Positions 39,621 to 63,950 of a DNA stretch of 64,000 nucleotides are shown here, piece after piece. Within the stretch, counting starts at the first letter, position 1, and each line of letters opens with the position of its first letter. The position numbers and the translations under genes are program-made. The notes under the pieces were generated by a model, which saw nothing but the letters and a program-made list of their open reading frames with translations, was not told the DNA's origin and did no database searches. The stretch is from assembly GCA_902761715.1 (NCBI GenBank), contig CACWLK010000008.1, forward strand, positions 8,307-72,306, read 5' to 3'. Origin of the DNA: an uncultured Rhodospirillales bacterium. Its GTDB lineage: Bacteria > Pseudomonadota > Alphaproteobacteria > RF32 > CAG-239.

Positions 39621-39659
39621 ATTTTGATAAAAGCCGAAGGCAAGACCTTCGGCTTTTTT
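39621..39659. repeat. terminator hairpin, copy A of a 39-bp direct repeat
   Basis: ATTTTGATAAAAGCCGAAGGCAAGACCTTCGGCTTTTTT. Copy B lies at 40311-40349 and differs at 1 nt in the loop. Confidence 0.85.
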
Positions 39660-39773
39660 TGGGTTATTAGAAATAGAATTTGTATTAAAAAAACGCCCCC
39701 CGCAATAAGTAGCCCAATCTAAAAAAGAAAGGAACAATTTTATTGCGAGGGGTGTTTTTTCAGGCTAATGGTC

Positions 39774-40133
39774 TTAGAGCATTATCTTGCAGCAAATGTA
39801 CGTTTGTACAAAGCAGGGAACTATAAAGATTAACTTTAAAATTCCCCTTACAAGCTGCTCTTTGGTTTCATACTCAATCATCCTCGCAAGATTTCCATAG
39901 CTATACCATAGCGCGCAGCTATTGACCAAAATCCATACCCTTAATATGGTGTTTTGTTGGTCTTGCCACGCAAAAATGTTAAGTATAACTACTGTTGATA
40001 CAAAGATGAGGCATACCCCTACCATAAACCACTTAGGAAGGCCTTTGGGGGTAGCCACAAAAATAAGCGCGTAGATAACCAGAAGAGCAATGATGAAATT
40101 ATTCATGGTATAGATTTTAAATTTAACATTCAT
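39774..40133 (-). CDS. small polytopic membrane protein (119 aa) inside the repeat-bracketed cassette
   Basis: Four hydrophobic helices. Its own large-loop terminator hairpin lies at ~39688-39760. Start uncertain (ATG 40133 or 40106). Confidence 0.5.
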   Translation of the reverse strand: MNVKFKIYTMNNFIIALLVIYALIFVATPKGLPKWFMVGVCLIFVSTVVILNIFAWQDQQNTILRVWILVNSCALWYSYGNLARMIEYETKEQLVRGILKLIFIVPCFVQTYICCKIML

Positions 40134-40310
40134 TTAAAAACAACTATCATGAAAGAAGACCAAAAGCCTTAAAGTATAATATACATATACCATCCATAAT
40201 AATTGTTATTAGGATTTTATTATACCATATTTGGGGGTGAAACACAATAAAAATCAAAAACGCACAAAAAGCGTAAGTTACGAGTAGTTATTTTGCTTTT
40301 TTATAAATTG

Positions 40311-40349
40311 ATTTTGATAAAAGCCGAAGGCAAAACCTTCGGCTTTTTT
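40311..40349. repeat. terminator hairpin, copy B
   Basis: ATTTTGATAAAAGCCGAAGGCAAAACCTTCGGCTTTTTT, 690 bp from copy A. Confidence 0.85.
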
Positions 40350-40364
40350 GTTGATTCTGACGCA

Positions 40365-41168
40365 TTACCCAACTTTAATTAATCTAAACCAGCTGTGCAA
40401 TCCGGTCGGTATGGAAAACAATATTTTCTCATTGCTATGTTGGGGCATCGGCTCACCGACACCATGTTTAATTTTATACTTATATTTGCGAATGAGGTAT
40501 TTTTGGCCTAAAAACGAAAATGAAAATTTGTCTCTCAGACGCCAAGCGGGACGCCAACTGCCCGAATAGTGATGGATAGCGTAGGCATTTTTATTGTCCG
40601 TACAAAAATATGTATATGGATAAAGCCAACAATTTTCGGTAATTTTAACCCTGCCCTTTTTAATATAAGTATTTTCTATATTATAGTTTTTCTTTAGGAC
40701 ATTTGTAAAAAGAGTTGGGTTCGGGGTTTGATTATAACTGCCGTCTGATCTGATAAACTCAAGTTCATTATACGCATCTAGGAGATGTTTGATAATTTCG
40801 TGATGAGGCACAGCGCCGATAAGCGCCGGATTAATTTCTTTGGAAGAACCGCAGCGTTGTGAACCGATAACGAAATCATGGTCTAAAAATACATCAAGAG
40901 GTTTTATAATTTCTTCATCTGTATCAAAATAAAAGCCCCCGTAATTCCACAAGGCAAACAAACGTACATAGTCCGAAACAAATGCCCACTTTTGCGCTTC
41001 TACAGCCTGACAAAGATATTTATTATCAAAGTTTTTCAAACACTCATTGCCCCAATGAATTATTTGATACTTCGGCAAAATCTTTGACCATGAAGCAATA
41101 CATTTTTGCTCTACAGGTCCGGGTTTTTTGTCTCCAAACCAGCAATAATGGATAATTTTCGGTATCAT
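40365..41168 (-). CDS. glycosyltransferase (GT32-like, DXD sugar-transferase family)
   Basis: MIPKIIHYCWFG... N-terminus and ...GGFYFDTDEE... DXD region. Confidence 0.75.
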   Translation of the reverse strand: MIPKIIHYCWFGDKKPGPVEQKCIASWSKILPKYQIIHWGNECLKNFDNKYLCQAVEAQKWAFVSDYVRLFALWNYGGFYFDTDEEIIKPLDVFLDHDFVIGSQRCGSSKEINPALIGAVPHHEIIKHLLDAYNELEFIRSDGSYNQTPNPTLFTNVLKKNYNIENTYIKKGRVKITENCWLYPYTYFCTDNKNAYAIHHYSGSWRPAWRLRDKFSFSFLGQKYLIRKYKYKIKHGVGEPMPQHSNEKILFSIPTGLHSWFRLIKVG

Positions 41169-41652
41169 ATTTTAACTCCCATACTATGAATAATAAACTG
41201 TCAGAATTTTAAAACAACAATAAATTGTTTTTAATTTAAAATTCAAGTAAAGGTTTAGTAAAACATGAAAAAATGGTATAATTTTTGTATGTCTAAGGTA
41301 TTATTTTTGCTCATAGTTTACTTCCTTTTTTAGTTATAAAAAAGTCGCCCTTTTGAGGCGACTGGAAGTTGAGAACTACTTATCTGAAATAGTGCGATAT
41401 ATTGACCGCAAGGCTTATTTTACCGCCTTCCAGTCATTGTATAAATAACTAGTTGGCGTGCAAAATTTAACGTCTTACACCAGACGCAGATAACGAGGTT
41501 CTCACACCCCAGATAGGAACACCCCATCCACTTAAGACTTTATAAATAAACAAGGAAAAAGTAAAGAAGAAAAAAAGTTATAGAATACTGCGGTTCGGAA
41601 AATCTCTATATAATAACCATTAAAAAACCTCCCGCTTGGGGAGGTTTTTTAA

Positions 41653-41728
41653 TGGTGCCGACACACGGACTCGAACCGCGGACCCACTGATTACAAATCA
41701 GTAGCTCTACCAACTGAGCTATGTCGGC
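41653..41728 (-). tRNA. tRNA-Thr (anticodon UGU), CCA encoded
   Basis: Cloverleaf: acceptor GCCGACA/TGTCGGC, anticodon stem ACTGA/TCAGT with loop TTTGTAA, T-arm CGCGG-TTCGAGT-CCGTG. Confidence 0.9.
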
Positions 41729-41854
41729 AATCTCTGGATAGGTTTTATATATGACATCATTTTTACTGTCAAGCAAAAAAAATTATGATAAAAACAACTG
41801 CAATATTATGTTGCAGACAAACTAAATTCTTATATATTGTTGATGAGGTATGAA

Positions 41855-42865
41855 ATGGACTTTAATAAACTGCAAATAATAAAATTGTTAAATGATGCCG
41901 AGCAACAAAAAACGTTGTTCAAAAAGGCTGATAACATCCGTCGGCAATATGTTGGCGATGAAGTGCATTTGCGCGGTTTAATTGAGTTTTCCAACATTTG
42001 CAGAAACAATTGCCTGTATTGCGGAATAAGGCGTGGTAACAACAAGGTTGTACGCTATCATATGACTGAAGATGAGCTGATTGATACCGCCAGAAAAGCT
42101 GCAAATATCGGTTTTAAGACTATTGTTATGCAATCCGGCGAAGACATGTATTATACTCAAGACAAAATGTGCCGGATTATTGAAGCTATCAAAAAGTTTG
42201 ATGTAGCAATAACCTTGAGCATCGGCGAGAGAACTTATGATGAGTATAAGGCCTTTCGGGAGGCAGGTGCTGATCGCTATTTGATGAGGATTGAAACAAC
42301 CGATAAAGATTTGTATCACAAACTTGATCCAGAGATGAGTTGGCAACATCGTTATGATTGTTTGATGATGATTAAGGAACTCGGATATGAACTGGGCTCG
42401 GGAATTATGGTCGGACTTCCGGAACAAACTGTCGAATCTATTGCTGACGACTTGCTGTTTTTGAAAGATATCGGGATTGATATGGCCGGTATCGGACCGT
42501 TTATTCCTCACCCGCAGACACCTTTGGCCGGGGCTGCCGGCGGAACGTTGGATTTGGCCTTGCGGACAATGGCAGTTATGCGGTTGATGATGCCTGATAT
42601 AAATATTCCGGCAACCACGGCGATGGAAAGTTTGCACCCGAAAGGGAGAATTATGGCCCTACAAGCCGGAGCAAACGTGGTTATGCCAAACGTTACCGAA
42701 GGAGAATATCGTAAGCTGTACGAGCTTTATCCGGGGAAAATTTGCGTTAATGACACACCGGTACACTGCCGTAGCTGTATAGGCATGAAAATTGAGGCAA
42801 TCGGGCGCACTATCGGTAAAGGTTATGGCGGACACCAAAAGTCTATGCAAAAAACTAAAGATTAA
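41855..42865 (+). CDS. hydE: [FeFe]-hydrogenase maturase HydE (radical SAM)
   Basis: GLIEFSNICRNNCLYCGIRRGN (CX3CX2C), ...VMQSGED..., ...IGPFIPHPQTPL... and ...YPGKIC... are collinear with HydE as I recall it. Start ATG 41855 follows GAGG. Confidence 0.85.
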   Translation: MDFNKLQIIKLLNDAEQQKTLFKKADNIRRQYVGDEVHLRGLIEFSNICRNNCLYCGIRRGNNKVVRYHMTEDELIDTARKAANIGFKTIVMQSGEDMYYTQDKMCRIIEAIKKFDVAITLSIGERTYDEYKAFREAGADRYLMRIETTDKDLYHKLDPEMSWQHRYDCLMMIKELGYELGSGIMVGLPEQTVESIADDLLFLKDIGIDMAGIGPFIPHPQTPLAGAAGGTLDLALRTMAVMRLMMPDINIPATTAMESLHPKGRIMALQAGANVVMPNVTEGEYRKLYELYPGKICVNDTPVHCRSCIGMKIEAIGRTIGKGYGGHQKSMQKTKD

Positions 42866-44066
42866 AAACTTTTACAACCCTGTCCAAAACACCCTGTGTC
42901 TTTGAAATGGCAACACCATAGTTGGTAATTGCCACACCACGGCGAACACATTCATGCAAGCGACGGAGCATTTCTGCACGGTTGAGCATACAGGCTCCGC
43001 AATGGATTACGAGGGCGTATTCTTCCAAATTGTCGGGAAAATCCGCACCATGGCAAAAATCAAAATTTATGTTCTTGCCGGTGTACTGTTTAATCCAGTT
43101 AGGAATTTTGACTTTGCCGATGTCATCAGACATGGCATGGTGAGAACAAGCCTCGGCAATCAAAATTTTATCCCCGTCTTTGAGGGCGTCAATTTTGCGG
43201 GCTCCGTCAACCATTATCGGCAAATCGCCTTTGTTGCGGGCAAACAAAATTGAAAAAGTCGTAAGGTTAATGTTGGTAGGCACGATTGAGGAAACTTTTT
43301 TGATTACCTGAGAATCGGATATAATCAATGACGGCTGATGATGTTGATTGTTCAGCGCAGAGGACAAGTCGTTTTCTTTGACAACCACAGCGGTGGCGTT
43401 GCTATCCAAAATTTCACGCAGGACTTGAACTTGCGGGAGTATCAGCCTGCCCTTGGGCGCGGAAAGATCAAGTGGAACAACCATAAATACGGTTTCTCCG
43501 GCAGAAAATAAATCACCGGCAAGCAAAGGAGCATCCTTAAAATCAGGCGGAACAATACTGATGACTGCTGATTTGAGCGCATCAATATTTTGCTTTTGGG
43601 TGGACGAAACAATCACATACAGCAATTTATTGTCTTTGCAAAAGGCGATGTCATCAGCTGAAGGCTCGTGTTTATCCTGCTTGTTAAAGGCAATTACAAA
43701 TGGGATTTTCATGTCTTGAAGACGAGTGATGATTTCTTTTTCAACCTGTCCTAATCCGGCTTCTCCGCAAACCAAAACCGCAATGTCGCTGCGTGCCAAA
43801 ACTTTTAGAGTGGCTTTGATGCGCAACTCTCCGAGGGTGCCGTCATCGTCAAGTCCGGCGGTGTCATAGAGGGTAACAGGTCCAAGCGGCAAAAGTTCAT
43901 AAGGCTTGGATACGGCATCAGTAGTGGTGCCGGGGTGATCTGACACGATGGCAACGTCTTGTCCGGTAAAGGCGTTTATTAACGATGATTTTCCGGCATT
44001 TCGACGCCCGATAAAACTGATGATACAACGTAAGGCACGCGGTGTGGACGAGGCATTGTCACTCAT
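42855..44066 (-). CDS. hydF: [FeFe]-hydrogenase maturation GTPase HydF
   Basis: GRRNAGKSSLINAFTGQDVAIVSDHPGTTTD G1/G2 motifs. C-terminal CSHH...HCGAC cluster-binding motifs. Start ATG 44066 (AAGGAG upstream). Confidence 0.85.
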   Translation of the reverse strand: MSDNASSTPRALRCIISFIGRRNAGKSSLINAFTGQDVAIVSDHPGTTTDAVSKPYELLPLGPVTLYDTAGLDDDGTLGELRIKATLKVLARSDIAVLVCGEAGLGQVEKEIITRLQDMKIPFVIAFNKQDKHEPSADDIAFCKDNKLLYVIVSSTQKQNIDALKSAVISIVPPDFKDAPLLAGDLFSAGETVFMVVPLDLSAPKGRLILPQVQVLREILDSNATAVVVKENDLSSALNNQHHQPSLIISDSQVIKKVSSIVPTNINLTTFSILFARNKGDLPIMVDGARKIDALKDGDKILIAEACSHHAMSDDIGKVKIPNWIKQYTGKNINFDFCHGADFPDNLEEYALVIHCGACMLNRAEMLRRLHECVRRGVAITNYGVAISKTQGVLDRVVKVFNL

Positions 44067-44214
44067 GATTGTCTCCTTTAATTTTTTATCAAAAGTATGA
44101 CGTTTATCAGTTATTGTCAATAAGTATTAAAATACTTTAGTTTTTGTAAAAAGTGTGGTATAGCTTGAGGCATTGAGACGTAATATTACTGATATTTTTG
44201 ACAGAGTATTGGAT

Positions 44215-47240: not shown

Positions 47241-48968
47241 TTAAAAGAGTTCAAGTTGCTTTTTCTCTTTTTGATATTTTTTATTTTCTTCTTCGTCTGC
47301 ATATCGCCAAATGTAACCACCGGCAGTGTGTCTAATCCCTTTTAGTACCATTCCAATATTACCACTGCTAATTTTCATTTTACGTGATGCATCAGATATT
47401 GATATAAATGTCTGTATAATCTTATTAGTTTTAGGATTAATCATATTTACAGCTTTCCGTTTTGCTTGTGTAGATTTTTCTATTCCGCATATTTTACAAC
47501 CATATCCATATATTCTATGGCTAATTGAGGTTTCATATTCATAACCACATTTAGGACATAGCCACCAAACTTTATGATCAGACCCTGGCTTGAACATATT
47601 GGGAGTTAATTTCCCATTTTTACTAGGATGCCATTCTTTCGCAATTTCAGGGTAAAGTTCACCTAAAGATCCTTTTTTATATTCTTGACTATATTCATTT
47701 AATATTTTTAACCTGTCCCTTCTAATATTAACATCGTAATCATATGATGTAAAAACATGATTTCTGGAAGCTGAAAAATCTAACATATGTAAAATGCGAG
47801 GAATGAATGTATCTAAATTTTCTTCTGTATATAAATCAGAAATACAAATACATTTATCAGCAATATTTGTGTATTTTTCGTCTTTTTCCTTCAAGCGGAT
47901 TAATTGTATATCATTAGCCTTACATAATTTGTATTTTTTCTGTTCTCTTTCCCTCTTATTTTCTTTATGCCAAGCCATTCCATCATATTCTATTGCAATT
48001 CTTGTGGAAGGTATAAATATATCTAATTCCATTTTGCCTAGAAATGGAGCTCTATATCTATTTATAGCATCTGGGTATATCTTTTTGATATAAAAATAAA
48101 ATGCCTGTTCTGCAAACGATGTTTGCCTTCCCGAATAACATATGGGACAATTTGTCCCGCTATTTGTCCTTTTGTTCACGGTGGATTGGTATTCATGACC
48201 ATGTGGACAAAGCCACCAAACTTTTTTACCATAACCATAACTGACTTTTTCCGGTGTCAAATTACCATTTTTTGTCGGATGCCATTCTTTTGCTAGTTCC
48301 GGGTGTGTTGTCATTAAATCATTTTTTCCAATAACCACCACTTTATTCGAACAGCATGGGCATCCTCTCTTCAGTTTTGCTCTATTACTTATTCTTGCTT
48401 CCCAATTATAACCACACTTTTCACATATCCACCATACTTTCTTGGGATTACTAGCAAGCACCTTATATGGATCGACTTTCGTATTTTTTTCATAATCCCA
48501 TTCCTTTAGCAATTCAGGATTTGTAATAGTCAGGTTTTTCTTATCTAGCACATTTTGTTTTTTACAGTCGATACATCCTATATAATCTCCAATACTTCTT
48601 TCTATTTCTTTTCCACAAATATGACACTTCCACCATGCTTTGTAACGAGAATTTCTTGTGAACATATCTGGGGTTAGTTTTCCGTTCCTTGTAGGATGCC
48701 AGTCTTGTATTATACCAGCGGGAATCTGGAAAGAAGATCTTTTTGCTTTGGACCAACGGCCGTAATGGCATTTTGGACAACTCCTACCATCATGTGCACG
48801 GTGACTGATTGAAGATTGCCACTTGTGACCGCAAAGATAACATTTCCACCATACCTTTTTTTGACTGCCGAGAGTCAATTCTTCTGGAGAAATTTTATTC
48901 GCTTCCCAATCCCATTCTTGCATGAGATGTTCGTCATCTATTATGTATTTCTTTGGTGCTTGTGGCAT
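47241..48968 (-). CDS. selfish-element-like protein with five zinc-ribbon repeats, a PD-(D/E)xK-like nuclease core and a C-terminal homing-endonuclease-type HTH
   Basis: Five repeats of L..EW(D/H)..KN..P......KKVWW.C..CG..W...I..R.....CP.C. Central ...ELDIFIPSTRIAIEYDGMAWH... nuclease-like core. The C-terminal ...IQTFISISDASRKMKISSGNIGMVLKG..HTAGGYIWRY is NUMOD/IENR-like. Markedly AT-rich. Start taken as ATG 48968 (MPQAPKK). Confidence 0.7.
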   Translation of the reverse strand: MPQAPKKYIIDDEHLMQEWDWEANKISPEELTLGSQKKVWWKCYLCGHKWQSSISHRAHDGRSCPKCHYGRWSKAKRSSFQIPAGIIQDWHPTRNGKLTPDMFTRNSRYKAWWKCHICGKEIERSIGDYIGCIDCKKQNVLDKKNLTITNPELLKEWDYEKNTKVDPYKVLASNPKKVWWICEKCGYNWEARISNRAKLKRGCPCCSNKVVVIGKNDLMTTHPELAKEWHPTKNGNLTPEKVSYGYGKKVWWLCPHGHEYQSTVNKRTNSGTNCPICYSGRQTSFAEQAFYFYIKKIYPDAINRYRAPFLGKMELDIFIPSTRIAIEYDGMAWHKENKREREQKKYKLCKANDIQLIRLKEKDEKYTNIADKCICISDLYTEENLDTFIPRILHMLDFSASRNHVFTSYDYDVNIRRDRLKILNEYSQEYKKGSLGELYPEIAKEWHPSKNGKLTPNMFKPGSDHKVWWLCPKCGYEYETSISHRIYGYGCKICGIEKSTQAKRKAVNMINPKTNKIIQTFISISDASRKMKISSGNIGMVLKGIRHTAGGYIWRYADEEENKKYQKEKKQLELF

Positions 48969-49153
48969 ATTGTTCCCTCTGGCTGTATATTCGCATTTAC
49001 GCTTTATTTTTGCAACCAAAAAACATCATGCCTTTTTAATAATAAACGTCATCGCTCCAAAAGCGTAAGTCTTTTGGTCAAGCGATCTTCTATATTGTTT
49101 TAAAACAAGGAAGATCCCTGGACGATTTTGCAAGCAAAATCGAGGGATGACTT

Positions 49154-49213
49154 TAAACAACAAAAAACTCCGGCCGGGTGTTCGGAGTTTTTTGGTTGAT
49201 AATATTGAGTGGT
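49154..49213. repeat. copy A of the gyrA 3'-flank/terminator repeat
   Basis: TAAACAACAAAAAACTCCGGCCGGGTGTTCGGAGTTTTTTGGTTGATAATATTGAGTGG. Near-identical to 49788-49847, which is the authentic gyrA terminator and the spacer up to the gyrA stop codon. Confidence 0.85.
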
Positions 49214-49483
49214 AGTAATAAAGTTCCTGAAGAGTCATACACAAGCAAGGCGTATATTGTAAAAAATAAAGATGGTTCTGTAAGACAATACAGAGAATTT
49301 GATGAAAGACATAAACCCAAGATAGATGTTGATTATCAAATAAAACCATCTTACGATAAAAAGAACAAAACATTACATATACATGATTATAAAAATGGTG
49401 AAAGACAGCCTCCGAGGAGATTAACGGTTGAAGAATATGTTAAATATGGCAAGTATTTCAATGTGAATTTATTGAGGAGGTAA
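49178..49483 (+). CDS. hypothetical protein, possibly a 5'-truncated remnant (toxin C-terminal-domain-like)
   Basis: The ORF opens inside the repeated hairpin (GTG), has no internal Met and no convincing SD. Basic/His-containing C-terminus (...KTLHIHDYKNGERQPPRRL...). Tightly followed by a well-signalled small gene. Confidence 0.35.
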   Translation: MFGVFWLIILSGSNKVPEESYTSKAYIVKNKDGSVRQYREFDERHKPKIDVDYQIKPSYDKKNKTLHIHDYKNGERQPPRRLTVEEYVKYGKYFNVNLLRR

Positions 49484-49487
49484 AAAT

Positions 49488-49790
49488 ATGATAGGAACAA
49501 CGTTTCAGGAATTTTATGATAAATTATACTACGGCACGGATATTGAGATGAGCTATGGCGGTTCAGATTACATTTTGAGTTCCGCAGGACTTGTTGTAAA
49601 TGATAAACTCATAAAGCATGAAATACGACTATATAAAATAAATACTTCTGATAAGCTTCTCAAAAGTATGTATGAGCAGAGTTGCCCAAAAACAGAAGAT
49701 AGCATAAATAACTTTCTTAATGCTAAAATTTTTGATGGAAAGTCGTTTCTAGAAATAGAAAATAATGTGCAAATTGATACAATATTATAA
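49488..49790 (+). CDS. hypothetical small acidic protein (immunity-like position)
   Basis: ATG 49488 preceded by GAGGAGG at ideal spacing. 100 aa. Its stop lies in the first bases of repeat copy B. Confidence 0.6.
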   Translation: MIGTTFQEFYDKLYYGTDIEMSYGGSDYILSSAGLVVNDKLIKHEIRLYKINTSDKLLKSMYEQSCPKTEDSINNFLNAKIFDGKSFLEIENNVQIDTIL

Positions 49791-49847
49791 ACACAAAAAA
49801 CTCCGGCCGGGTGGTCGGAGTTTTTTTCTTTGATAATATTGAGCGGA
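49788..49847. repeat. copy B: gyrA intrinsic terminator and 3' spacer
   Basis: TAAACACAAAAAACTCCGGCCGGGTGGTCGGAGTTTTTTTCTTTGATAATATTGAGCGG, directly abutting the gyrA stop (49848-49850). Confidence 0.85.
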
Positions 49848-52592
49848 TTACTCGTCTTCTTCTTGAGTTTCCGGCTCGGTAATATCCTCAATGTTGAGGT
49901 CGCTGTCATCGGCAACGCTTTCGCCCAAGACTTCAGAACCGGTTTCGTTTTCCAGCTCTTCCTCGTCTTCGGAGTCAGCATCAAGCCAAGTTACAGATAC
50001 GACCTTTTCTTTGTCTCCCGTACGGAACAAGATTACACCTTGTGTCTTACGTCCGGCAATACGAATGTCTTCTACAGGCATGCGGATAAGTTTGCCGCCG
50101 TCGGTTACCATCATAATTTGGTTGTCGTTCTCAATCGGGAATGAGCTTACAACCTCTTTGTTACGAGGAGACATTTCCATGTTGGCAATACCCGAACCGC
50201 CACGACCGGTAACACGATATTCATAAGAAGAAGAACGTTTACCATAGCCGGTGCAGGTTACGGTCAAAATAAACTGCTCGTTGGCTTGCATTTCGGCAAA
50301 TTTTTCAGCGGTCAACAAGTTGAGCAGACCTGTGTCTTCTGCCTTTATGCCGGCTACGCCGTCATGTTCGGCTTCCATACGTTTGATGGCTGAAACAATC
50401 TTGGCGTATTCATCACGCTCTTCTGATGTAGCGTCGCTGTGCTTCAATACCGACATTGAAATAACTTCATCTTTGTCAGCAAGTTTGATACCACGTACAC
50501 CGACCGAATTACGTCCGACAAATACACGAACCTCAGTTACCGGGAAGCGGATGCATTTACCGCTCTTGGTAGCCAACATTACGTCGTCTTTTTCGGTACA
50601 GATACGAACGTTAATCAGCTTGTCGTCATCATCAAGTTTCATTGCAATTTTGCCGTTGGACTGAATGTTTACAAAGTCCATAAGGCTGTTGCGACGAACC
50701 ATACCGCTCTTGGTTGCAAACATAATCGACAAGTTTTTGCAATCAGCCTCTTTTTCCGGCAACGGCATAATGGTGGTAATGTTTTCGCCCTCGTCAAGCG
50801 GCAACAGGTTTACAAACGGTTTGCCCTTTGAGGTCGGAGAACCTAACGGCAATTTATAAACTTTGAGCTTGTAAACCAGACCTTTGGACGAGAAGAACAA
50901 AACCGGCGTATGGGTAGAGGTTACAAACAAGCGAGATACAAAATCTTCTTCTTTGGTAGTCATACCCGATTTGCCTTTGCCACCGCGTTTTTGCGCCTTG
51001 TAAGCATTGAGCGGAACACGTTTGATATAGCCGGCCTCGGTTACGGTAACAACCATATCTTCACGCTGAATAAGAGATTCAACATCTTGTTCAAACTCAA
51101 ATTCTTCAATCTTGGTCAAGCGTGGAGTTGCGTACTCATCTTTAATGGCAATTAATTCATCACGCATAATGCCATAGAGCTTTTCACGGCTGCCCAAAAT
51201 AGACAGGCATTCTTTGATTTCATCGCCCAAGTTATATAATTCTTGGTGGATTTTATCACGCTCCAAACCGGTCAAACGTTGCAATCTCAAGTCCAAAATG
51301 GCTTTGGCTTGAGCTTCGGACAAATGATAATGTCCGTTCTCAACCTTGCGGTCAGGCTCGTCAATCAAAATTACCAAAGGTTCAACATCGCCGGCCGGCC
51401 ATGCTCTCGCCAGCAAGGCATCTTTGGCTTCTTGCGGTGACGGAGCTGTACGAATAAGCTCGATTACGGGGTCAATATTTTCAACCGCAATTGCCAAACC
51501 GACCAATGTATGAGCGCGATCACGGGCTTTGTTCAGCTCGTAAATGGTGCGGCGACGAATGACTTCTTCACGGAACTCTATAAATGCAGCAATAATGTCT
51601 TTTAAGTTCAACATCATCGGGCGACCGCCGTTGATGGCAAGCATATTCATACCAAAACTGGTCTGCAACGGAGTGAGTTTGTAAAGCTGATTTAAGATAA
51701 CATCGGCTTGGACATCTTTTTTGACTTCAATAACCACGCGAACACCTTGACGGTCGGACTCATCGCGGATGTCAGAAATGCCCTCAACTTTCTTTTCTTT
51801 AACCAGTTCGGCAATACGCTGAACCATAGCGGCCTTATTGACCTGATAGGGGATTTCGTGGACAATGATTGCCTCTCTGTCCTTGCGGATCTCCTCAATA
51901 GTGCATTTAGCACGCATAACAACAGAACCACGTCCGGTATAATATGCAGACTTGGCACCACTCTGCCCCAAAATTAAACCACCAGTCGGGAAATCAGGTC
52001 CGGGGACATAATGAATGAGTTCATCAATGGTAATATCCGGATTGTCAATATATGCACAGCAGGCCGAAATAACCTCGCCCAAGTTGTGAGGAGGAATGTT
52101 GGTGGCCATACCGACGGCAATACCGTTGGTGCCGTTGACGAGCAAGTTCGGATAGCGAGCCGGCAAAACAATAGGCTCTTGCAAGCTTTCATCATAGTTG
52201 GGCATGAAGTCAACGGTGTCTTTGTCAATGTCTTCAATCAAAGCATGGGCAACTTTGGCGAGCCTTGCCTCGGTGTAACGCATAGCGGCGGCACCGTCTC
52301 CGTCCATTGAACCAAAGTTTCCTTGTCCGTCAACCATCGGAACACGCATGGCAAAAGGTTGAGCCATACGAACCATTGCATCATAAACCGAGCTGTCGCC
52401 GTGCGGGTGATATTTACCCAAAACATCACCGACGATACGGGCTGATTTACGGAACGGACGGTTGTAATCATAGCCATTCTCAAACATTGAATAGATGATG
52501 CGGCGGTGAACCGGCTTTAAGCCGTCACGGACATCAGGCAATGCACGAGAGACAATAACACTCATTGCATAGTCGAGGTAAGAACGGCGCAT
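49848..52592 (-). CDS. gyrA: DNA gyrase subunit A
   Basis: [49 protein letters not shown] (QRDR), [10 protein letters not shown] (active-site Tyr), C-terminal beta-pinwheel repeats and an acidic tail. The ORF starts only 3 codons before SYLDY. Confidence 0.95.
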
Positions 52593-52660
52593 TACTTATG
52601 CCCATATAAAATGGGCAAATTCCTCTCTACGGGCAAAAAAACGCCCTTTAAAACGATTTT
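52392..52660. repeat. gyrA 5' end plus 5'UTR/promoter-proximal region, copy 1 of a long direct repeat
   Basis: The 201 coding nt (52392-52592) match 53742-53942 with 2 mismatches. An upstream 44-nt block, ATGCCCATATAAAATGGGCAAATTCCTCTCTACGGGCAAAAAAA, is identical at 52598-52641 and 53963-54006. Looser similarity continues further. Confidence 0.9.
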
Positions 52661-52794
52661 GGTTAAAATTAAAATGAAAAAGTTAACGATATTTCACTGT
52701 AGCGCCATAAAAAACGATTAGACAATTTTGTCAAAAAGTAAAAAAACAAATTATTATTTCAAATAACTCATTGAAATATAATAATTTATTTATA

Positions 52795-52823
52795 TTGAGC
52801 AAAGGTTAAAAATATGGTACAAT
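52795..52823 (+). promoter_or_regulatory. strong sigma70-type promoter with extended -10, firing toward the 125-aa ORF
   Basis: TTGAGC, 17 nt, (TGG)TACAAT, inside a very AT-rich stretch. Confidence 0.45.
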
Positions 52824-53075
52824 ATAATTACAAAATAATTATTAGCATTTATTAATTTAACACAGGTAGGTAAGGAAGAACACGAGTTCATTTATATTGT
52901 TGAAAGACTGCATGACACGCGGCGCCCATATTATTGCTTTTGCATAATATAATCGTACAAGGTATGGTTTAGGGATCAGAATATAAGGCAATATATTGGA
53001 TTTTAAGTATTCCCCAGGGATTTGTGTTATTATTTAAAGGAGGCGATTCTGAGGCACGGAAGTGCGTAAAGGGTC

Positions 53076-53453
53076 GTGGTTAGTATGGGAAACATGATTA
53101 ACTTTGTCGTCAGCAATCCTTGGATGTGGGTCCTTGTCGCTCTGGCTCTCATTCCTCTCGGGTGGGGGTTAGTCGTATTCGCAGTTCAGCTCTACAGCTC
53201 AGCGCGTGGAGAGAAATGTGTCGAAAAATTTAAGGAGTTCTGGCAGTATTGCGTCCGACTGGATCGCGACAGCTATCATCATGGATGGAGCAAATTGTTC
53301 TACAACAAGTTTGTGCGGCTACTGATGATTGTGTCTCTGTATTTTGTATGGGGATACGTTCTCGTGCTGCTCGGGCTTGCTCTTGGATGGCTCTTCAAGA
53401 TTATCTTCGGTAATCTATGGAAAGGCATTAAAGCACTCTACAACATGATCTAA
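53076..53453 (+). CDS. small membrane protein (two to three TM helices)
   Basis: 125-aa ORF (GTG 53076, or ATG 53085/53094). Hydrophobic helices WMWVLVALALIPLGWGLVVFAV and LLMIVSLYFVWGYVLVLLGLALGWLF. By eye more GC-rich than its surroundings. Confidence 0.5.
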   Translation: MVSMGNMINFVVSNPWMWVLVALALIPLGWGLVVFAVQLYSSARGEKCVEKFKEFWQYCVRLDRDSYHHGWSKLFYNKFVRLLMIVSLYFVWGYVLVLLGLALGWLFKIIFGNLWKGIKALYNMI

Positions 53454-53471
53454 CTTCTCCATTCTCATAGC

Positions 53472-53500
53472 AAAAAAGCCTCCATTACGGGGGCTTTTTT
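53472..53500. terminator. bidirectional intrinsic terminator between the 125-aa ORF and the porin fragment
   Basis: AAAAAAGCCTCCATTACGGGGGCTTTTTT. Confidence 0.65.
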
Positions 53501-53561
53501 GTTTAAGTTGTTGTGCAATGAAAAAATAAATACCGCTTCACCTGCAAGGCAGGAAAACAGC

Positions 53562-53942
53562 CTACCAGGCATAATTGAAACTGGCGCCAAGGGCATACGC
53601 ATCATAAGAGCTGCCGAAGGTGTAGTTAGCCCAGGCATAAGCTGACAGAGCGTCGGTAAAGCCGTAACGTCCGCCAATCTCGATACATCCCAAGATTTGG
53701 TCAGAGTATGTGCCAGTCTTGTTCATACCGCTTATGGTTACGCTGTCGCCGTGCGGGTGATATTTACCCAAAACATCACCGACGATACGGGCTGATTTAC
53801 GGAACGGACGGTTGTAATCATAGCCATTCTCAAACATTAAATATATGATGCGGCGGTGAACCGGCTTTAAGCCGTCACGGACATCAGGCAATGCACGAGA
53901 GACAATAACACTCATTGCATAGTCGAGGTAAGAACGGCGCAT
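53562..53942 (-). pseudogene. chimeric ORF: gyrA codons 1-67 fused in frame to the last ~59 codons of a foreign beta-barrel porin gene
   Basis: MRRSYLDY...GKYHPHGDS is identical to gyrA except for S to L, then ...[36 protein letters not shown] (OMP-type C-terminus ending in an aromatic residue). It is preceded by a copy of the gyrA 5'UTR. Confidence 0.8.
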
Positions 53943-54025
53943 TACTATTTTTTATGCAACTCATGCCCATATAAAATGGGCAAATTCCTCTCTACGGGCA
54001 AAAAAATGCCCTTAAAATCGATTTT
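53742..54025. repeat. gyrA 5' end plus upstream region, copy 2
   Basis: See copy 1. Offset is exactly 1350 bp in the coding part. Copy 2 has 15 extra nt between the ATG and the conserved block. Confidence 0.9.
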
Positions 54026-59240: not shown

Positions 59241-59252
59241 CTAACTATCCTC

Positions 59253-59450: not shown

Positions 59451-59536
59451 TTTGCTTCCCTTTCTATAAATTTTTGGATGCGAACAAACGGCAACAGGCA
59501 TGCCTTTTAGCCCGTTTACCGAGATTAACGTTGTGG

Positions 59537-59565
59537 GTTATACAGCAGATTTTATGTAATGTCAA
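59537..59565 (-). promoter_or_regulatory. sigma70-type promoter of the rpmI-rplT-pheST operon
   Basis: Minus strand reads TTGACA, 17 nt, TATAAC, ~85 nt upstream of the rpmI ATG. Confidence 0.5.
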
Positions 59566-59799
59566 TCGGTAATTTTAATATTTGTATCTATTTGTATATT
59601 AAGATTTTTGCTTGACTTTAGCGCATTTAATAAATAACGTAAAAGTGCGTCGAATGATTATCGACGTGAGGTTTGAAACCCTCTTCTGGTTGTTCGAATA
59701 TTGAACGTAAAACTACCTTTTTGCTGTGGCAGGAAGGTAATTAATAAGATATTTATATCAAATACACTACACTATTCCAGAAATAGGTTTCAACTTCCT

Positions 59800-59826
59800 G
59801 CTACCTCTAATCAAGGTAGCTTTTTT
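59800..59826 (+). terminator. intrinsic terminator/attenuator 18 nt upstream of the GT2 gene start
   Basis: GCTACCT-CTAATCA-AGGTAGC followed by TTTTTT on the plus strand. Confidence 0.55.
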
Positions 59827-59844
59827 GTTAACCTTTTTTGGAGA

Positions 59845-60825
59845 ATGTGTGTGATAGATAATGTTTGTGATATCAGTATTATTGTTCCTGTTTACAATAC
59901 TGAAAATTTTTTAGAAAAATGTTTAAATAGCCTTATTGACCAAACTTTTACCAACTGGCAAGCAATATGCATAAATGATGGAAGTAGCGACAGTTCTCTA
60001 AAAATTTTGCAACATTATGCTCAAAAAGACAAACGATTTGTGATTATAAACCAAGAAAACAAGGGGGTATCGACAGCAAGAAACGTCGGATTAAAAGCTG
60101 CAACTGGAAAATATATTATGTATCTGGACAGCGACGATATAATACACCCTAAGTGCATGGAAATTGCATTAAAAACTATTACTGATACTCAGACTGACGT
60201 GTGCGACTTTGGTTTTGTAAGAGTGAAAGAAAAGCAAAATATATCTCATGTGCAATATGATAATGCGGAAAATATTGAAATTCTCGAATCACCGTTAAAA
60301 AATTTTGCACTAAAGGACGATAAGTCTGCCTTAATGCTTTGCAAAAAAATGTATAAAGCGGAAATTGCCAAAAGTGCCGTCTTTGCGCCGATTGCCATAG
60401 GGGAAGATATATTATATTCATTTGATGTCTTCAGAAAAGTTAAGAATTATACCAAAATATCAAACAACTTGATGTATTATGTACAAAGACAATCATCAGT
60501 CATGCATGATCCAAATAAAATAAGACTTTATCAAAACAAACTCGTGTTTACTGATTTATTGTATGATAAAATTTGTCATTTTTGCAAACAAGGACAGTTG
60601 TCGGCAGAAGCGTGCGAACTGTGGCATCGATATATTTGTAACAAACTGTTTCGATATTATGTTATTAAACCGTATCAACTAAAATTTTCCCAAGAAAGTA
60701 TTATGGAAAATGTAAAAAAATTAAAAACAAAAAACTTTAACAGGAAAGCTTTGAAATTGAGATATAGAATTATCTTATACCTGATGGAGTACGGATGTTG
60801 GCCCATTTTGCGAATTTTTGCATAA
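59845..60825 (+). CDS. family 2 glycosyltransferase
   Basis: ISIIVPVYNTENFLEKCLNSL..Q....W..I.INDGS.D.S, then YIMYLDSDD (DXD). Start moved to ATG 59845 (GGAGA upstream). Confidence 0.8.
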   Translation: MCVIDNVCDISIIVPVYNTENFLEKCLNSLIDQTFTNWQAICINDGSSDSSLKILQHYAQKDKRFVIINQENKGVSTARNVGLKAATGKYIMYLDSDDIIHPKCMEIALKTITDTQTDVCDFGFVRVKEKQNISHVQYDNAENIEILESPLKNFALKDDKSALMLCKKMYKAEIAKSAVFAPIAIGEDILYSFDVFRKVKNYTKISNNLMYYVQRQSSVMHDPNKIRLYQNKLVFTDLLYDKICHFCKQGQLSAEACELWHRYICNKLFRYYVIKPYQLKFSQESIMENVKKLKTKNFNRKALKLRYRIILYLMEYGCWPILRIFA

Positions 60826-60913
60826 TTGAAGTTTATGTGTAATAAAATGATATAAGCCTTGCACAAGTTGGGGGTATAGGGTATATCTTTCAGGTAATTA
60901 AGGAGTATTTCGT

Positions 60914-62158
60914 ATGTTTAATAGGTTTGAGCGCATGGTGGCGCGCCGCTATCTTAAAGCCAAGCGTAAAGAAGGTTTTATTTCGGTTATTACCGGTTTT
61001 GCTTTTACGGGAATCGCATTGGGCGTTGCAACGCTGATTATTGTTATGTCGGTGATGAATGGTTTCAGGAGCGAACTGTTAGGCAGAATTTTGGGGATTA
61101 ACGGACATATCGGGATTGTATCAAATAACTCAATGCCTTTTACAAACTATAAGCAGGCAATAAAAGACATTAATGCTCTTGATAATGTTGAGATAGCTAT
61201 CCCTTTGATTGAAAAACAACTTTTGGTATCGTCGGGACGAGCTGCCGAAGGTGCTATGGTTAGAGGTATCAGGCGTGAAGATATTGAGCTGAAAAAGACC
61301 ATTCGCAACGGTATGCTTGACATTAATCTTGATGAGTTTGAAGGCGATAATGTACTGGTCGGCTATCGATTGGCGCAAAAGATGGGATTGATGACCGGCG
61401 ATGAAATCACGCTTATTTCACCTAACGGCAAAGTTACAGCTTTCGGAACCGTACCACGGATGAAATCTTACAGAATTGCCGGATTGTTTGAGCTCGGTAT
61501 GTATGAATATGATGCCAACTTTATTTTTATGCCGCTTGATACCGCTCAGACCTATTTTGGTACCGGTGATGGAGTTACAAATATTGATGTAACACTTAAA
61601 CACCCTGATTTGCTCTATCAAACACGAGAAGTAATCCGTAACGGTATAGGTAACGAAGCATATATTTTTGACTGGAAACAATCAAATGCAGCATTTTTTA
61701 ATGCAATAGATGTTGAACGCAATGTTATGTTCCTGATTTTGACGCTGATTATTTTGGTGGCGGCGTTTAATATCATTACCGGACTGATTATGCTGGTGAA
61801 AGACAAGGGGCGAGATATTGCAGTTTTGCGCACAATGGGCGCGACAAAGGGCATGATTATGCGCATATTCTTTATGGACGGCGCTTTTATCGGTGTGGTC
61901 GGAACCACAATCGGTGTTGTTCTCGGTGTGTTGTTCTGCAACAATATTGAAAGTATCAGACAATTTTTACAGAATATCTCGGGAAAAGAACTGTTTTCGG
62001 CAGAAATTTACTTTTTATCACGTCTGCCGGCAGAAGTTAACGTTACCGAGGTGGTGATGGTGGTACTGATATCTTTGTTGCTGTCGTTTATGGCAACAAT
62101 TTATCCGGCTTACAGAGCCGCAAAAATGGATCCGGTGGAGGCTTTGCGCTATGAATAA
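60914..62158 (+). CDS. lolC: lipoprotein-releasing ABC transporter permease LolC/LolE family
   Basis: MFNRFERMVARRYLKAKRKEGFISVIT... canonical N-terminus, MacB-type periplasmic domain and a C-terminal FtsX region. Overlaps lolD. Confidence 0.85.
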   Translation: MFNRFERMVARRYLKAKRKEGFISVITGFAFTGIALGVATLIIVMSVMNGFRSELLGRILGINGHIGIVSNNSMPFTNYKQAIKDINALDNVEIAIPLIEKQLLVSSGRAAEGAMVRGIRREDIELKKTIRNGMLDINLDEFEGDNVLVGYRLAQKMGLMTGDEITLISPNGKVTAFGTVPRMKSYRIAGLFELGMYEYDANFIFMPLDTAQTYFGTGDGVTNIDVTLKHPDLLYQTREVIRNGIGNEAYIFDWKQSNAAFFNAIDVERNVMFLILTLIILVAAFNIITGLIMLVKDKGRDIAVLRTMGATKGMIMRIFFMDGAFIGVVGTTIGVVLGVLFCNNIESIRQFLQNISGKELFSAEIYFLSRLPAEVNVTEVVMVVLISLLLSFMATIYPAYRAAKMDPVEALRYE

Positions 62159-62864
62159 TATTTTGAGCTTGAGAAACGTCTGTAAGTCATTTAATCAAGG
62201 GGCGCAAAAATTGGAAGTTTTGCGCGGAGTAAATTTTGATATAAATGAAGGGGAAGTTGTAGCATTAATCGGTCCTTCGGGGTCGGGAAAATCTACCCTG
62301 CTCCAAATTGCCGGACTGTTGGAAGTGCCGACCAGCGGTAGCATTTTGTTGAATGGTCAGGACTGCTCAAAGCAAAGTGATGTTATCAGAACATCGCTGC
62401 GCCGGGATTTTTTGGGTTTTGTGTATCAGTATCACAACCTGTTGCCGGACTTTAATGCTCTTGAAAACGTAATGATTCCGCAGCTGATTGCCGGCAAAAA
62501 TCCCAAAGATGCCAAAGAAAAAGCTGAGTGGCTCTTAAATAAGATGAAGCTGGACAATCGTCTTACTCATCGTCCGGCGGAACTTTCCGGCGGAGAACAA
62601 CAGCGTGTGGCGATTGCACGTGCATTGGCAAACACCCCGAAAATGCTGCTCGCCGACGAGCCGACCGGAAACCTTGATCCAAAAACAGCAGACATTGTTT
62701 TTGAAGCATTAATGAATATTATTAAAGAAACCGGTTTGGCTGCACTGATTGCTACGCATAATATGGAACTGGCAAAAGCCATGGACAAACAGGTCGGACT
62801 GGAAGAAGGACGTTTGGTCGAATTAGGGATTTCTTCCATTATCGGAAACAACAGTTTTTATTAG
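62151..62864 (+). CDS. lolD: lipoprotein-releasing ABC transporter ATPase
   Basis: [37 protein letters not shown]. Confidence 0.9.
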
Positions 62865-62873
62865 GAGAAAATT

Positions 62874-63242
62874 ATGAAAAAATTGTGGTTATGCGGAACA
62901 GCGGCTATCTTGGCAACTTGTAATGCAGAGGCAAAGTTTAATCCTCCGGCAAATTATATTACAAACTCACAAAAAATTGCTATGTATCAGATGAATATGT
63001 ATGATGCTGACCATGACGGAAAATTGTCGCCGGAAGAGTTTGCCAATAAATCTCAGGTGGCAGAAACCAGAGAAACCAGAAGACAAATCAGACAAGCTAA
63101 AAAAGCCGGCATTTATCAAGTCCCTGATGAGCAGTTCAAGACCATTGATGCTAACGAAGACGGATATATTACTTTGCCGGAACTTAATAACTATATTTCC
63201 GAGCAAACGAAGAAAACTAAAGGCAAAGTTAAGTACTATTAG
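62874..63242 (+). CDS. secreted EF-hand calcium-binding protein
   Basis: Signal peptide plus two EF-hand loops, DADHDGKLSPEE and DANEDGYITLPE. Confidence 0.65.
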   Translation: MKKLWLCGTAAILATCNAEAKFNPPANYITNSQKIAMYQMNMYDADHDGKLSPEEFANKSQVAETRETRRQIRQAKKAGIYQVPDEQFKTIDANEDGYITLPELNNYISEQTKKTKGKVKYY

Positions 63243-63251
63243 ATGAATGAT

Positions 63252-63292
63252 TATAACAAAAAACCGCTCTTTTTACAGAGCGGTTTTTGTTG
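63252..63292. repeat. terminator hairpin, copy A of a perfect 41-bp direct repeat
   Basis: TATAACAAAAAACCGCTCTTTTTACAGAGCGGTTTTTGTTG, identical at 63910-63950. Confidence 0.9.
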
Positions 63293-63298
63293 CAACGA

Positions 63299-63784
63299 TT
63301 AAGAATTTTGCCGATTTTGGGAAATCATGTGTTTTAATTTCGCAAATTTTTTTGCTTCTTCATATGCAAGAGCTTTTTTCTTTTTATCGTCAGAAATGGT
63401 AGCTACAGAATTTTGCATATTGTCATCATCAGTCTTGTTGTCTTTTGAAGCAGAAGAAGTCTGTTCCTTTTTTGAAATTTTTGCATCCTCAGCAGCTTCT
63501 ATGCTCTTTTTTATTTGATGTTCTTTTTTAAATTCCCTAATTTGTTTATTATACTCTTCGCGCGACAAATAAGTAGCACCTGGATCACGAATATAAAGTT
63601 CTGTTGTATCAAGTTTATGCGTATTTGCATATTCTTTAAGTTCTTCTTCATTAAGACTGCTTAGCCCCGAGTTTTCTTTATTATCACAAGAACCTGCGGT
63701 GGCGCCAAGTCCAAACAAAGCTGTACCGACAGCAACCTTTTTAAGCAATTTCTTGGCTTTTTCTATTCTTTCTTTTATACTCAT
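63299..63784 (-). CDS. Lys/Glu-rich lipoprotein (161 aa) inside the repeat-bracketed cassette
   Basis: Start ATG 63784 (GGGAGA upstream). Signal peptide ending in ...TAGSC. Confidence 0.55.
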   Translation of the reverse strand: MSIKERIEKAKKLLKKVAVGTALFGLGATAGSCDNKENSGLSSLNEEELKEYANTHKLDTTELYIRDPGATYLSREEYNKQIREFKKEHQIKKSIEAAEDAKISKKEQTSSASKDNKTDDDNMQNSVATISDDKKKKALAYEEAKKFAKLKHMISQNRQNS

Positions 63785-63909
63785 GGCTGTTCTCCCTGAA
63801 TGTGATGAAAGCATGAATTGGTTAAATTTTCGTCAACATTTTTTAAACACTTTAATATTCATAGTATTAAGTTTAGCACAAAAAAGATATTTTGTCTAAT
63901 ATTTTCGAG

Positions 63910-63950
63910 TATAACAAAAAACCGCTCTTTTTACAGAGCGGTTTTTGTTG
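63910..63950. repeat. terminator hairpin, copy B
   Basis: Perfect copy, 658 bp from copy A. Confidence 0.9.

Follow-up and report, generated by a model that had tools for sequence, protein, structure and literature searches.

Five loci in a 64,000-nt stretch of contig CACWLK010000008.1, from an uncultured Rhodospirillales bacterium (the window, by which we mean this whole stretch), contain direct repeats of local host sequence at short distances from one another, and at four of them, (a) to (d), the copies enclose small genes or gene fragments. We find that these structures are real, strain-variable insertion scars and that they represent a variant of known insertion-duplication. The initial annotation had raised the idea of a mobile-element class with defined properties. 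A new class of this kind is not supported, because the cargos are unrelated and have no shared ends, the repeats range, over the window and its relatives, from 31 to at least 333 bp around inserts of 0.5 to 2.2 kb, and one gene-sized indel has no repeat at all. We give about an even chance to the reading that host recombination and repair caught foreign or relocated DNA independently in each case and left a scar, with no element-encoded enzyme taking part.

A scan for local direct repeats (exact 16-mers, 150–6000 bp apart) over the 64 kb returned the five loci as the only hits, against a mean of 0.04 in block-shuffled control sequence; the repeats listed in the initial annotation are thus all present and are the sole ones by this measure. 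The five cases are heterogeneous. The repeats at (a), (b) and (c) form strong hairpins (−16 to −20 kcal/mol, z-scores of −3.9 to −7) with runs of A and T on both strands, because of which they are predicted to be bidirectional terminators, and consensus scans also rank them among the best terminator-like sites. At (d) a promoter and the 5' end of a gene are duplicated and kept uniform by gene conversion, and at (e) the copies comprise a terminator and the 3' end of a tRNA gene. The hairpins of (a) to (c) occur twice each in the window and nowhere else in it, and none of the three sequences was matched in IMG/VR viral contigs. The (b) hairpin was found in 2 records out of 241 million metagenome records, one from a related strain (L112) and one a chance match in a high-GC organism (L113). 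The hairpins were said to be pair-specific and not members of one dispersed family like the repetitive extragenic palindromic (REP) sequences or bacterial interspersed mosaic elements, and this holds: each was met only as its own pair, in the window and at conspecific loci. A 33-nt similarity between 40246-40278 and 49038-49070 (repeat family D12) was followed up and had no extension beyond that length. The inserts contain 30–34% GC, compared with 41% for the window and 46–47% for most flanking core genes, and by composition they are foreign DNA.

The absence of a transposase, an integrase and inverted terminal repeats, also claimed in the initial annotation, was confirmed as follows. No transposase or integrase family was found by Pfam among the called genes across about 34–64 kb or among the cargo open reading frames (ORFs), and inspection of the insert ends revealed no inverted repeats other than the terminators' own palindromes. 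The duplications (42, about 55, 41–44 and 269 to at least 333 bp) do not resemble the 2–15 bp of fixed length that a transposon leaves. No common promoter or end motif was detected in the cargo upstream regions (n = 8) or at the insert ends, and two inserts end inside genes, namely a toxin gene at (b) and an outer-membrane-protein (OMP) gene at (d). Rfam identified only the three tRNAs in the window. Donors of the cargos were sought in IMG/VR with four cargo proteins, in a collection of 5.8 billion proteins and by a full HMMER search over 1.84 billion representatives; except for one 66%-identical immunity homolog in L105, all matches belonged to the clusters of the cargos themselves.

In a GyrA scan with one genome per species, the window falls among metagenome-assembled genomes of uncultured Alphaproteobacteria from the gut and rumen, which were deposited under the names "Azospirillum sp." or "Alphaproteobacteria bacterium". 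The nearest representative (L001) has a gyrA identical at 99% of amino acids and 93% of nucleotides, and the next, a sister species (L053), at 96% and 89%, respectively. Conspecific contigs, from independent samples and different assemblers, were gathered by exact-protein look-ups, which gave a population-level comparison. The same junction structures were found in independent assemblies at site (a) (L092-L095, L097-L099 and L103), site (b) (L090, L091, L103 and L104), site (c) (L083 and L084) and site (d) (L090, L103, L115 and L117, with the insert alone also in L001). Since the junctions were assembled independently in so many samples, the structures (Table 1) are real. An artefact in which the assembly paths of strain variants were stitched together at short repeats is hardly credible. 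Several contigs do end in a repeat (L087-L089; in L001 the break is at the first base), and the cargo of (c) also assembles alone as a 586-bp contig (L081), which is a linear fragment and not a circular junction. However, identical junctions came from different assemblers and many independent samples, filled and empty alleles are internally consistent and tied to distinct flank haplotypes, and the repeats are shorter than the k-mers (87 and 141, where contig names give them).

Table 1. Positions in the window of the repeats, inserts and associated genes at loci (a) to (e); terminators are predicted
Feature	Position	Strand	Description
Repeat (a), copy 1	39618..39659	.	Bidirectional terminator after lipoprotein gene 39057-39611 (+)
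Insert (a)	39660..40307	-	648 bp, 34% GC; promoter, ORFan membrane-protein gene, own terminator
Own terminator of insert (a)	39688-39760		
ORFan membrane-protein gene of insert (a)	39774-40133	-	119 aa
Repeat (a), copy 2	40308..40349	.	Terminator of glycosyltransferase gene 40365-41168 (-)
Repeat (b), copy 1	49154..49213	.	Copy of gyrA terminator and its 3' untranslated region
Insert (b)	49214..49787	+	574 bp, 30% GC; probable toxin C-terminal fragment and immunity-like gene
Toxin fragment of insert (b)	frame runs to 49483	+	5'-truncated
Immunity-like gene of insert (b)	49488-49790	+	Intact
Repeat (b), copy 2	49788..49847	.	Functional gyrA terminator; ends 1 nt before gyrA stop codon 49848-49850
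gyrA	49848..52592	-	Conserved core gene with insertion points at both ends
Repeat (d), copy at intact gene	52392..52660	-	gyrA 5' coding end and promoter/hairpin region
Insert (d)	52661..53741	.	1081 bp; non-coding DNA, small gene, terminator, OMP fragment
Non-coding part of insert (d)			415 bp
Small membrane-protein gene of insert (d)	53076-53453	+	
Terminator in insert (d)	about 53474-53500		
OMP gene 3' fragment in insert (d)	53562-53741	-	
Repeat (d), second copy	53742..54025	-	Native gyrA upstream region and first 67 gyrA codons
Chimeric ORF at (d)	53562-53942	-	First gyrA codons fused in frame to last 59 codons of OMP gene; PF00521 hit
Repeat (c), copy 1	63249..63292	.	Terminator common to EF-hand gene 62874-63242 (+) and cargo gene
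Insert (c)	63293..63906	-	614 bp, 33% GC; promoter and ORFan lipoprotein gene, no own terminator
ORFan lipoprotein gene of insert (c)	63299-63814	-	171 aa
Repeat (c), copy 2	63907..63950	.	Terminator of tuf (EF-Tu, minus strand; last codons only within window)
Case (e)	28201..28603	-	Two full copies and one half copy: about 30 nt, terminator, 10–15 nt of tRNA-Gln 3' end
Copies at (e)	28201-28262; 28382-28406; third ending 28603		Half hairpin at 28382-28406
tRNA-Gln	28608-28681	-	

It had been proposed that the inserts are bracketed by duplicated pre-existing host sequence, an idea that would fall if related genomes never had an empty site. Empty sites with a single copy were found for (c), (d) and (b), and the proposal is borne out at these loci. 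At (c), where 41 nt are perfectly repeated at a period of 658, both states segregate among conspecific contigs. The window, L083, L085 and L087 have the filled arrangement, terminator-insert-terminator, between otherwise near-identical flanks; L082, L086, L088/L119 and L089/L118 (about 97% identity) have one terminator. L084 is also filled, with a cargo gene that has lost its 3' end through a microhomology deletion of about 50 bp. Per 2400 bp of flank, 1–15 single-nucleotide polymorphisms (SNPs) were counted among the filled alleles and 28–47 for the empty ones. The site is also empty in L120 and L122, which are only about 84% identical across that block. As the empty state occurs in diverse and distant lineages while the filled alleles form a tight group, it is ancestral, and the insert entered recently in the window's sub-lineage.

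The lipoprotein encoded at (c) is an ORFan of this species, with matches in its own cluster only among the 5.8 billion clustered proteins and in the full HMMER search. An apparent occurrence of this gene in a new context (P0002, on L102 at 660-1105) was discarded as probably a chimeric scaffold, with unrelated higher-GC sequence and a spurious fusion of 207 aa. In a divergent lineage (L114, 118-2932), the same tuf/EF-hand site is occupied by a 2.7-kb insert of 34% GC with a gene for an 838-aa repeat-rich protein that has no family annotation on record. On one side of this insert stands the native terminator and on the other a different hairpin; the outer arm of this second hairpin matches the native flank. 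Site (c) is therefore a hotspot that is used with or without target duplication.

At (b), downstream of gyrA, the repeat aligns over about 55 nt (49160-49213 with 49793-49847, 92% identity, period 633). In the sister species L053 the gyrA terminator is single, and next to it comes the same conserved flank with its hairpin; this is the empty site. The initial annotation described the insert as carrying two small genes. This is right for the second, an intact immunity-like gene; the first ORF is a 5'-truncated toxin gene, whose frame aligns to residues ~45 to the end of a 140-aa protein of L040. Behind the gene for that protein lie two paralogous immunity-like genes, with XRE and ImmA-like genes beside them. 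From this alignment and gene order, insert (b) is probably a truncated toxin with one immunity gene retained from an L040-type module. The module itself (L040 13101-15740) encodes the 140-aa protein, which starts MGGRGSY, and two immunity-like paralogs of about 97 aa each; its neighbours encode an XRE regulator, a 189-aa protein that is ImmA/IrrE-like by eye and a 211-aa protein. Pfam assigned no family to the L040 toxin or to the window's toxin fragment and immunity gene. In L105, in an unrelated context, an immunity homolog 66% identical to that of the window occurs together with a further-truncated toxin remnant. The related strain L112 (92.6% identity) has the junction from repeat to toxin as in the window, whereas its toxin C-terminus differs and its immunity gene is of the other type. 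The (b) insertion must therefore be older, and its contents have been remodelled since.

The 3' end of gyrA is occupied in other members of the clade as well. In L001 (4128-6433) it holds a gene judged methyltransferase-like by eye and a GmrSD-N/HNH endonuclease gene (Pfam), with no duplication, and in the distant L078 a 54-bp terminator repeat surrounds genes for TetR and a hydrolase. The pair in L001 forms a defence-type module, and the site behaves as a hotspot for defence and immunity genes across the clade. Two further features of this region were noted. A gene on the minus strand at 47241-49019 (34% GC, internal 100-nt repeats) encodes a 592-aa protein with five DUF4379 treble-clef zinc-finger repeats and a NUMOD/I-HmuI-like DNA-binding domain, resembling a free-standing homing endonuclease; as it is found in conspecific contigs and is absent from L001 and L053, it represents a further insertion beside cassette (b). 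A hairpin, CCCTGGACGATTTTGCAAGCAAAATCGAGGG (window 49118-49148; L053 12874-12954), and its surroundings are ~80% conserved although the adjoining genes differ, and have no Rfam match.

At (d), upstream of gyrA, the repeat consists of two blocks (52392-52596 with 53742-53946 at 99%, and 52594-52660 with 53959-54025 at 94%) separated by a 15-bp indel. The duplication of the gyrA 5' end reported in the initial annotation is confirmed; its length, then put at ~270 bp, is an underestimate, since the 100% match between the copies of the conspecific L103 extends over at least 333 bp. The empty site is present in L118 and L119, from the ~97% identical lineage, where a 353-aa gene and its terminator are followed, with no insert, by the upstream region and the complete coding sequence of gyrA. 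In L048 a homolog of the OMP gene is the native upstream neighbour of gyrA, and in L003 a homolog of the 353-aa gene takes that place; the window thus combines two arrangements found in the clade. Its own β-barrel gene (26168-26956) was considered as the source of the OMP fragment and ruled out as unrelated.

The insert core moved recently between lineages at this same site, as a comparison with L001 indicates: 98.6% of positions agree in the non-coding part of insert (d), against only 81% of third codon positions in gyrA. Identity to L001 then falls along the insert, to 96.3% in the small gene (window 52661-53453 against L001 9-959 for the non-coding part and this gene); the terminator with the spacer is at 91% and the OMP fragment at 83%, a gradient like that of a recombination tract. 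Entry together with an L001-like gyrA anchor was considered and rejected: the window's gyrA 5' end is 97–100% identical to that of conspecific empty-site strains and about 92% to that of L001. A 90-bp in-frame deletion, which removes a 30-residue N-terminal extension of GyrA, affects both copies of the repeat in the window and L090, whereas in L103 both copies are free of it. Gene conversion therefore takes place between the copies, and their identity is uninformative on age. The 30-codon extension is polymorphic, with proteins of 944 aa and 914 aa (window 52590-52600 and 53940-53960; L103 13300-13480; L090 1350-1422). Relative to L103 the window further lacks 162 bp in the intact copy and 146 bp in the truncated one, including the 5' untranslated region and the ribosome-binding site; this may be either a real variant or an error in the window's assembly.

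Site (a), between a lipoprotein gene and a glycosyltransferase gene (repeat of 42 nt, 95% identical, period 690), is filled in all conspecific contigs, and its cargo turns over. In one conspecific strain (L096) the same two terminator copies enclose a gene for another membrane protein, of 159 aa and 33% GC, at a period of 637 bp. The copies in L096 retain the loop SNP that distinguishes the two copies in the window, and the two alleles have 11 bp in common beyond one copy, while the junction at the other copy differs. From the shared SNP and the shared 11 bp it follows that the bracket is older than the cargo difference. The cargo of the window is an ORFan known from this species only, with no homolog outside its own cluster in the 5.8-billion-protein collection. 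The orthologous lipoprotein gene of L053 is also bracketed, by an unrelated, perfect 31-bp terminator repeat around an S41-peptidase gene. On the far side of the glycosyltransferase gene, about 480 bp (41170-41650) without a convincing ORF extend to tRNA-Thr, with a terminator-like hairpin at 41343-41363 and no Rfam match.

These data bear on a scenario in which the slots are fixed and long-lived: terminators would have been duplicated once, long ago, their contents would turn over through conserved flanks, and empty sites would result from deletion between the copies; insertion with duplication would then not be something that recurs. The common SNP and 11 bp of the two (a) alleles are what it predicts, as is the remodelling of cargo within the (b) bracket, and gene conversion, as in (d), can keep copies identical at any age. 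However, (c) is empty in diverse lineages, distant ones included, and its filled alleles form one young group; the hairpins at orthologous sites are unrelated between species (L053 and the window); and each new cargo would still need an insertion step. We regard this scenario as distinctly improbable.

Case (e) differs in its repeat unit (Table 1), and the spacers between its copies, of 120–135 bp, are non-coding and show no tRNA homology. No variation was seen among conspecific contigs. Similar duplications of a terminator with a tRNA 3' end, involving other tRNAs, exist in the relatives L030 and L054. Of the five cases, (e) is the most compatible with remnants of integrase-mediated insertion. 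Extended to all loci, this idea would have phages, integrative and conjugative elements (ICEs) or small islands integrate at terminators or a tRNA 3' end and decay by internal deletion to attL, one cargo gene and attR, leaving islets like cis-mobilizable elements (CIMEs) that might be mobilisable in trans. Repeats of 31–60 bp are typical of the identity blocks of attachment sites, and the tRNA 3' ends at (e), L030 and L054 fit as well. So do the cargo genes that abut one repeat and use it as a terminator, like morons beside an attachment site, and the origin of the (b) cargo in a toxin-immunity module beside XRE/ImmA-like genes in L040, in an insert demonstrably remodelled since insertion. On the other hand, four or more elements with four specificities would be needed within 25 kb, each cut down to 1.1 kb or less with no integrase pseudogene left, and the (d) repeat, in addition to its length, lies inside a coding region. 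Viral contigs (IMG/VR) contained neither the three hairpin sequences nor any homolog of the four cargo proteins. No larger allele or intermediate was seen among the matches listed (8–10 of 22 EF-hand contigs, and of 22 L20 contigs) or the other conspecific contigs examined, and cargos (a) and (c) lack homologs, which is unexpected for a circulating element. Such decay seems to us unlikely as the general explanation.

Brackets of this type occur beyond the species. About 1.4 Mb of gyrA-centred loci from 80 species were surveyed, and pair-specific terminator or promoter brackets around one or two genes were found in about 3–4 cases: L053, L057 and L078, where terminators are duplicated, and L046, where the repeat is a promoter-like 48-mer. 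Their cargos are varied (S41 peptidase, RhuM, TetR with a hydrolase). The initial annotation had pointed to the similar periods of three loci in the window (690, 634 and 658 bp) as a shared property; the brackets of relatives measure 538–2207 bp and the alternative (a) allele also departs from them, so the similarity does not generalize. Other candidates were dismissed: L049 (probably also L043 and L064) has dispersed REP-like families, L015, L017 and L034 contain tandem paralogs with conserved promoters, and L044, L041 and L065 coding repeats. In the higher-GC relative L049 (12700-17300), the REP-like palindrome family CCTCCCCCCTCAAGGGGGAGG has many copies downstream of gyrA, some of them inside a long ORF. 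Gene gain also proceeds with no bracket at all. A family-2 glycosyltransferase gene (59545-60824), between rpmI and an ftsX-like gene, is replaced by 54 bp in L082/L086 (3906-3951), which also lack insert (c), and no direct repeat flanks this indel. Genes are thus gained in several ways, of which bracketed insertion is one.

How the first event came about at the molecular level, and what part selection played, we infer as follows. In form, each structure is a short target interval duplicated in tandem, with filler DNA at the junction. The initial annotation had suggested a Campbell-type single crossover, and this is a legitimate route to such a product: a circular molecule sharing the interval would integrate by insertion-duplication. 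By a second route, a linear fragment would be joined at two positions offset from each other, either on sister chromatids or at a replication fork. The lack of mobility genes and shared ends, the unrelated cargos, the insert ends inside genes and the variable repeats all fit host capture of arbitrary DNA. The events concentrate in short spacers beside core genes (both ends of gyrA, tuf, tRNA-Gln and the lipoprotein gene), likely because a compact genome offers few permissive points and because conserved genes serve as anchors for recombination between lineages. Terminators may prevail because convergent spacers of 65–75 bp consist almost entirely of terminator, and because only duplication of the whole terminator keeps both neighbours terminated; at the 5' side of gyrA the equivalent would be the promoter plus the 5' end. 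Selection would retain events that preserve the regulatory signals of both neighbours, and the shortest duplications of a whole hairpin would dominate if long ones were rarer. Later on, the slots evolve by ordinary homologous recombination: inserts spread or are lost through the flanks, cargos are replaced, the two repeat copies undergo gene conversion, and small deletions arise.

Several observations weigh against host capture as the explanation of these scars. The simple Campbell model fails for the first event, as the circle must already carry the local repeat, and 31–44 bp is short for a RecA-dependent crossover. A donor context was found for no insert in the viral contigs and protein collections, so that the junctions lack a source comparison, and at (d) the 5' end of gyrA in the window shows no recombination tract of the L001 type. 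Several cargo genes stop 0–30 nt from one repeat and have only 66–174 nt upstream, tighter than expected for random fragments. Orthologous sites have been struck repeatedly across lineages, in L053 beside the lipoprotein gene and in L078 at the 3' end of gyrA. Finally, the repeats at (a), (c), L053 and L057 end within a few nucleotides of the hairpin and never reach the flanking genes; as reaching into them would do no harm, the close fit could reflect a hairpin-directed step and not selection acting on random events. The trimmed cargos, the gene-sparing limits of the repeats, the recurrent use of the same spacers and the unexplained first pairing thus keep both the attachment-site and the hairpin routes alive.

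In the hairpin route, a structure-specific enzyme acting in trans, or breakage at an extruded terminator, would cut on both sides of the palindrome; foreign DNA would be joined and fill-in would duplicate the terminator. The repeats are indeed centred on hairpins with only 0–19 nt of flank, orthologous terminators are hit recurrently in different lineages, and the inserts are compact and gene-sized. The density of brackets also points this way, with 3 per 25 kb in the window against the about 3–4 in roughly 1.4 Mb of related loci. Yet (d) and L046 duplicate sequence other than terminators, the repeat flanks are asymmetric and variable in length, neither the family-2 glycosyltransferase indel nor the insertion of L114 at site (c) was accompanied by duplication, no candidate enzyme is encoded in the window, and spacer geometry with selection can explain the pattern. 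We consider this route quite improbable. Equally slim, in our estimate, are the prospects of a broader analogy, according to which terminators of convergent genes would be reusable landing pads that need no mobile element and where captured genes would arrive insulated, in parallel to spacer integration into clustered regularly interspaced short palindromic repeats (CRISPR) but with gene-sized inserts.

Usual accounts of the gain of single accessory genes invoke mobile elements or exchange by way of homologous flanks and say little on how a gene first lands between core genes. At the loci described here this first step can still be read from its scar, in which the target is duplicated in tandem and the new gene lies at the junction; within one uncultured gut species, alleles without the insert, with it and with exchanged cargo continue to segregate. 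If the pattern is general, pair-specific duplicated terminators or promoters would be a simple marker of recent, element-independent gene capture, and the brackets could help to date the arrival of ORFan and immunity genes. If the preference for terminators turned out to be mechanistic and not selective, a new integration route would be defined.

A literature search returned no description of locus-specific duplicated terminators flanking chromosomal gene insertions, and the loci were compared with several known systems. Integrons have an IntI integrase with attI close by, and their cassettes carry attC sites, which are cassette-specific imperfect palindromes with conserved core sites; here the repeats are identical within a pair, they are near-perfect GC stems copied from the host spacer, and no integrase is encoded in the region examined. 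CIMEs are integrase-less islets flanked by att sites and derived from ICEs. The likeness lies in direct repeats of tens of base pairs around cargo without recombination genes, with targets at the 3' ends of conserved genes or tRNAs, and, as in att-flanked islets, (b), (c) and (d) have direct repeats of which one copy is left in the empty site. The difference is that no cognate integrase-bearing element or attP was found among the viral and conspecific contigs examined, that four repeat sequences lie within 25 kb and that one of them reaches at least 333 bp in a coding region.

The minimal mobile elements of Neisseria, reportedly described by Saunders and Snyder in 2002, are said to be alternative gene cassettes within conserved flanks, exchanged presumably through these homologous flanks. 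Sites (a) and (c) behave in the same way: between the same flanking genes and with no mobility genes, (a) holds the 119-aa cargo (window) or the 159-aa cargo (L096), and (c) is empty or holds the 614-bp insert or the 838-aa gene (L114). Transposases, integrases and terminal repeats are absent in both systems, but the definition is not known to include a duplication of the target or terminator on both sides of the cassette. Homology-facilitated illegitimate recombination is said to have been described in 2002 by de Vries and Wackernagel and by Prudhomme et al. In this process 0.3–2.5 kb are captured by a homologous anchor with an arbitrary foreign end, and an orphan immunity gene with a toxin remnant would be a product like (b), whereas the classical form replaces or deletes recipient DNA and here there is duplication. 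Orphan toxin-immunity modules have been explained by this process (PMC5361080).

The closest likeness in architecture is to the PeSL (promoter early stem-loop) cassettes of T4-type phages, ORFans set between direct repeats of a promoter-terminator stem-loop, recombination between which frees mini-circles with the potential to reintegrate (PMC2839356). Both systems consist of small AT-rich ORFans between regulatory direct repeats, with presence, absence or replacement among close relatives. PeSLs, however, form one dispersed phage family with a shared promoter-terminator motif, any two members of which can recombine; our pairs are locus-unique, copied from the host spacer and located on a bacterial chromosome, and the eight cargo upstream regions are motif-free. 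In product, the loci match Campbell insertion-duplication. During conjugation in E. coli, 56/60 candidates for homology-facilitated illegitimate recombination were single crossovers of circular molecules that left target duplications of 109–950 bp, more than the illegitimate events with one homologous end (PMC3240628), and in pneumococcus a donor fragment bridging sister chromatids produces tandem duplications by interchromatid crossover triggered by transformation (PMC3784515). Sites (b), (c) and (d) show the identical outcome, foreign DNA within a direct duplication of a host segment that is single when the site is empty; they differ in that the shared segment is terminator-centred and mostly 31–60 bp, shorter than in the experiments.

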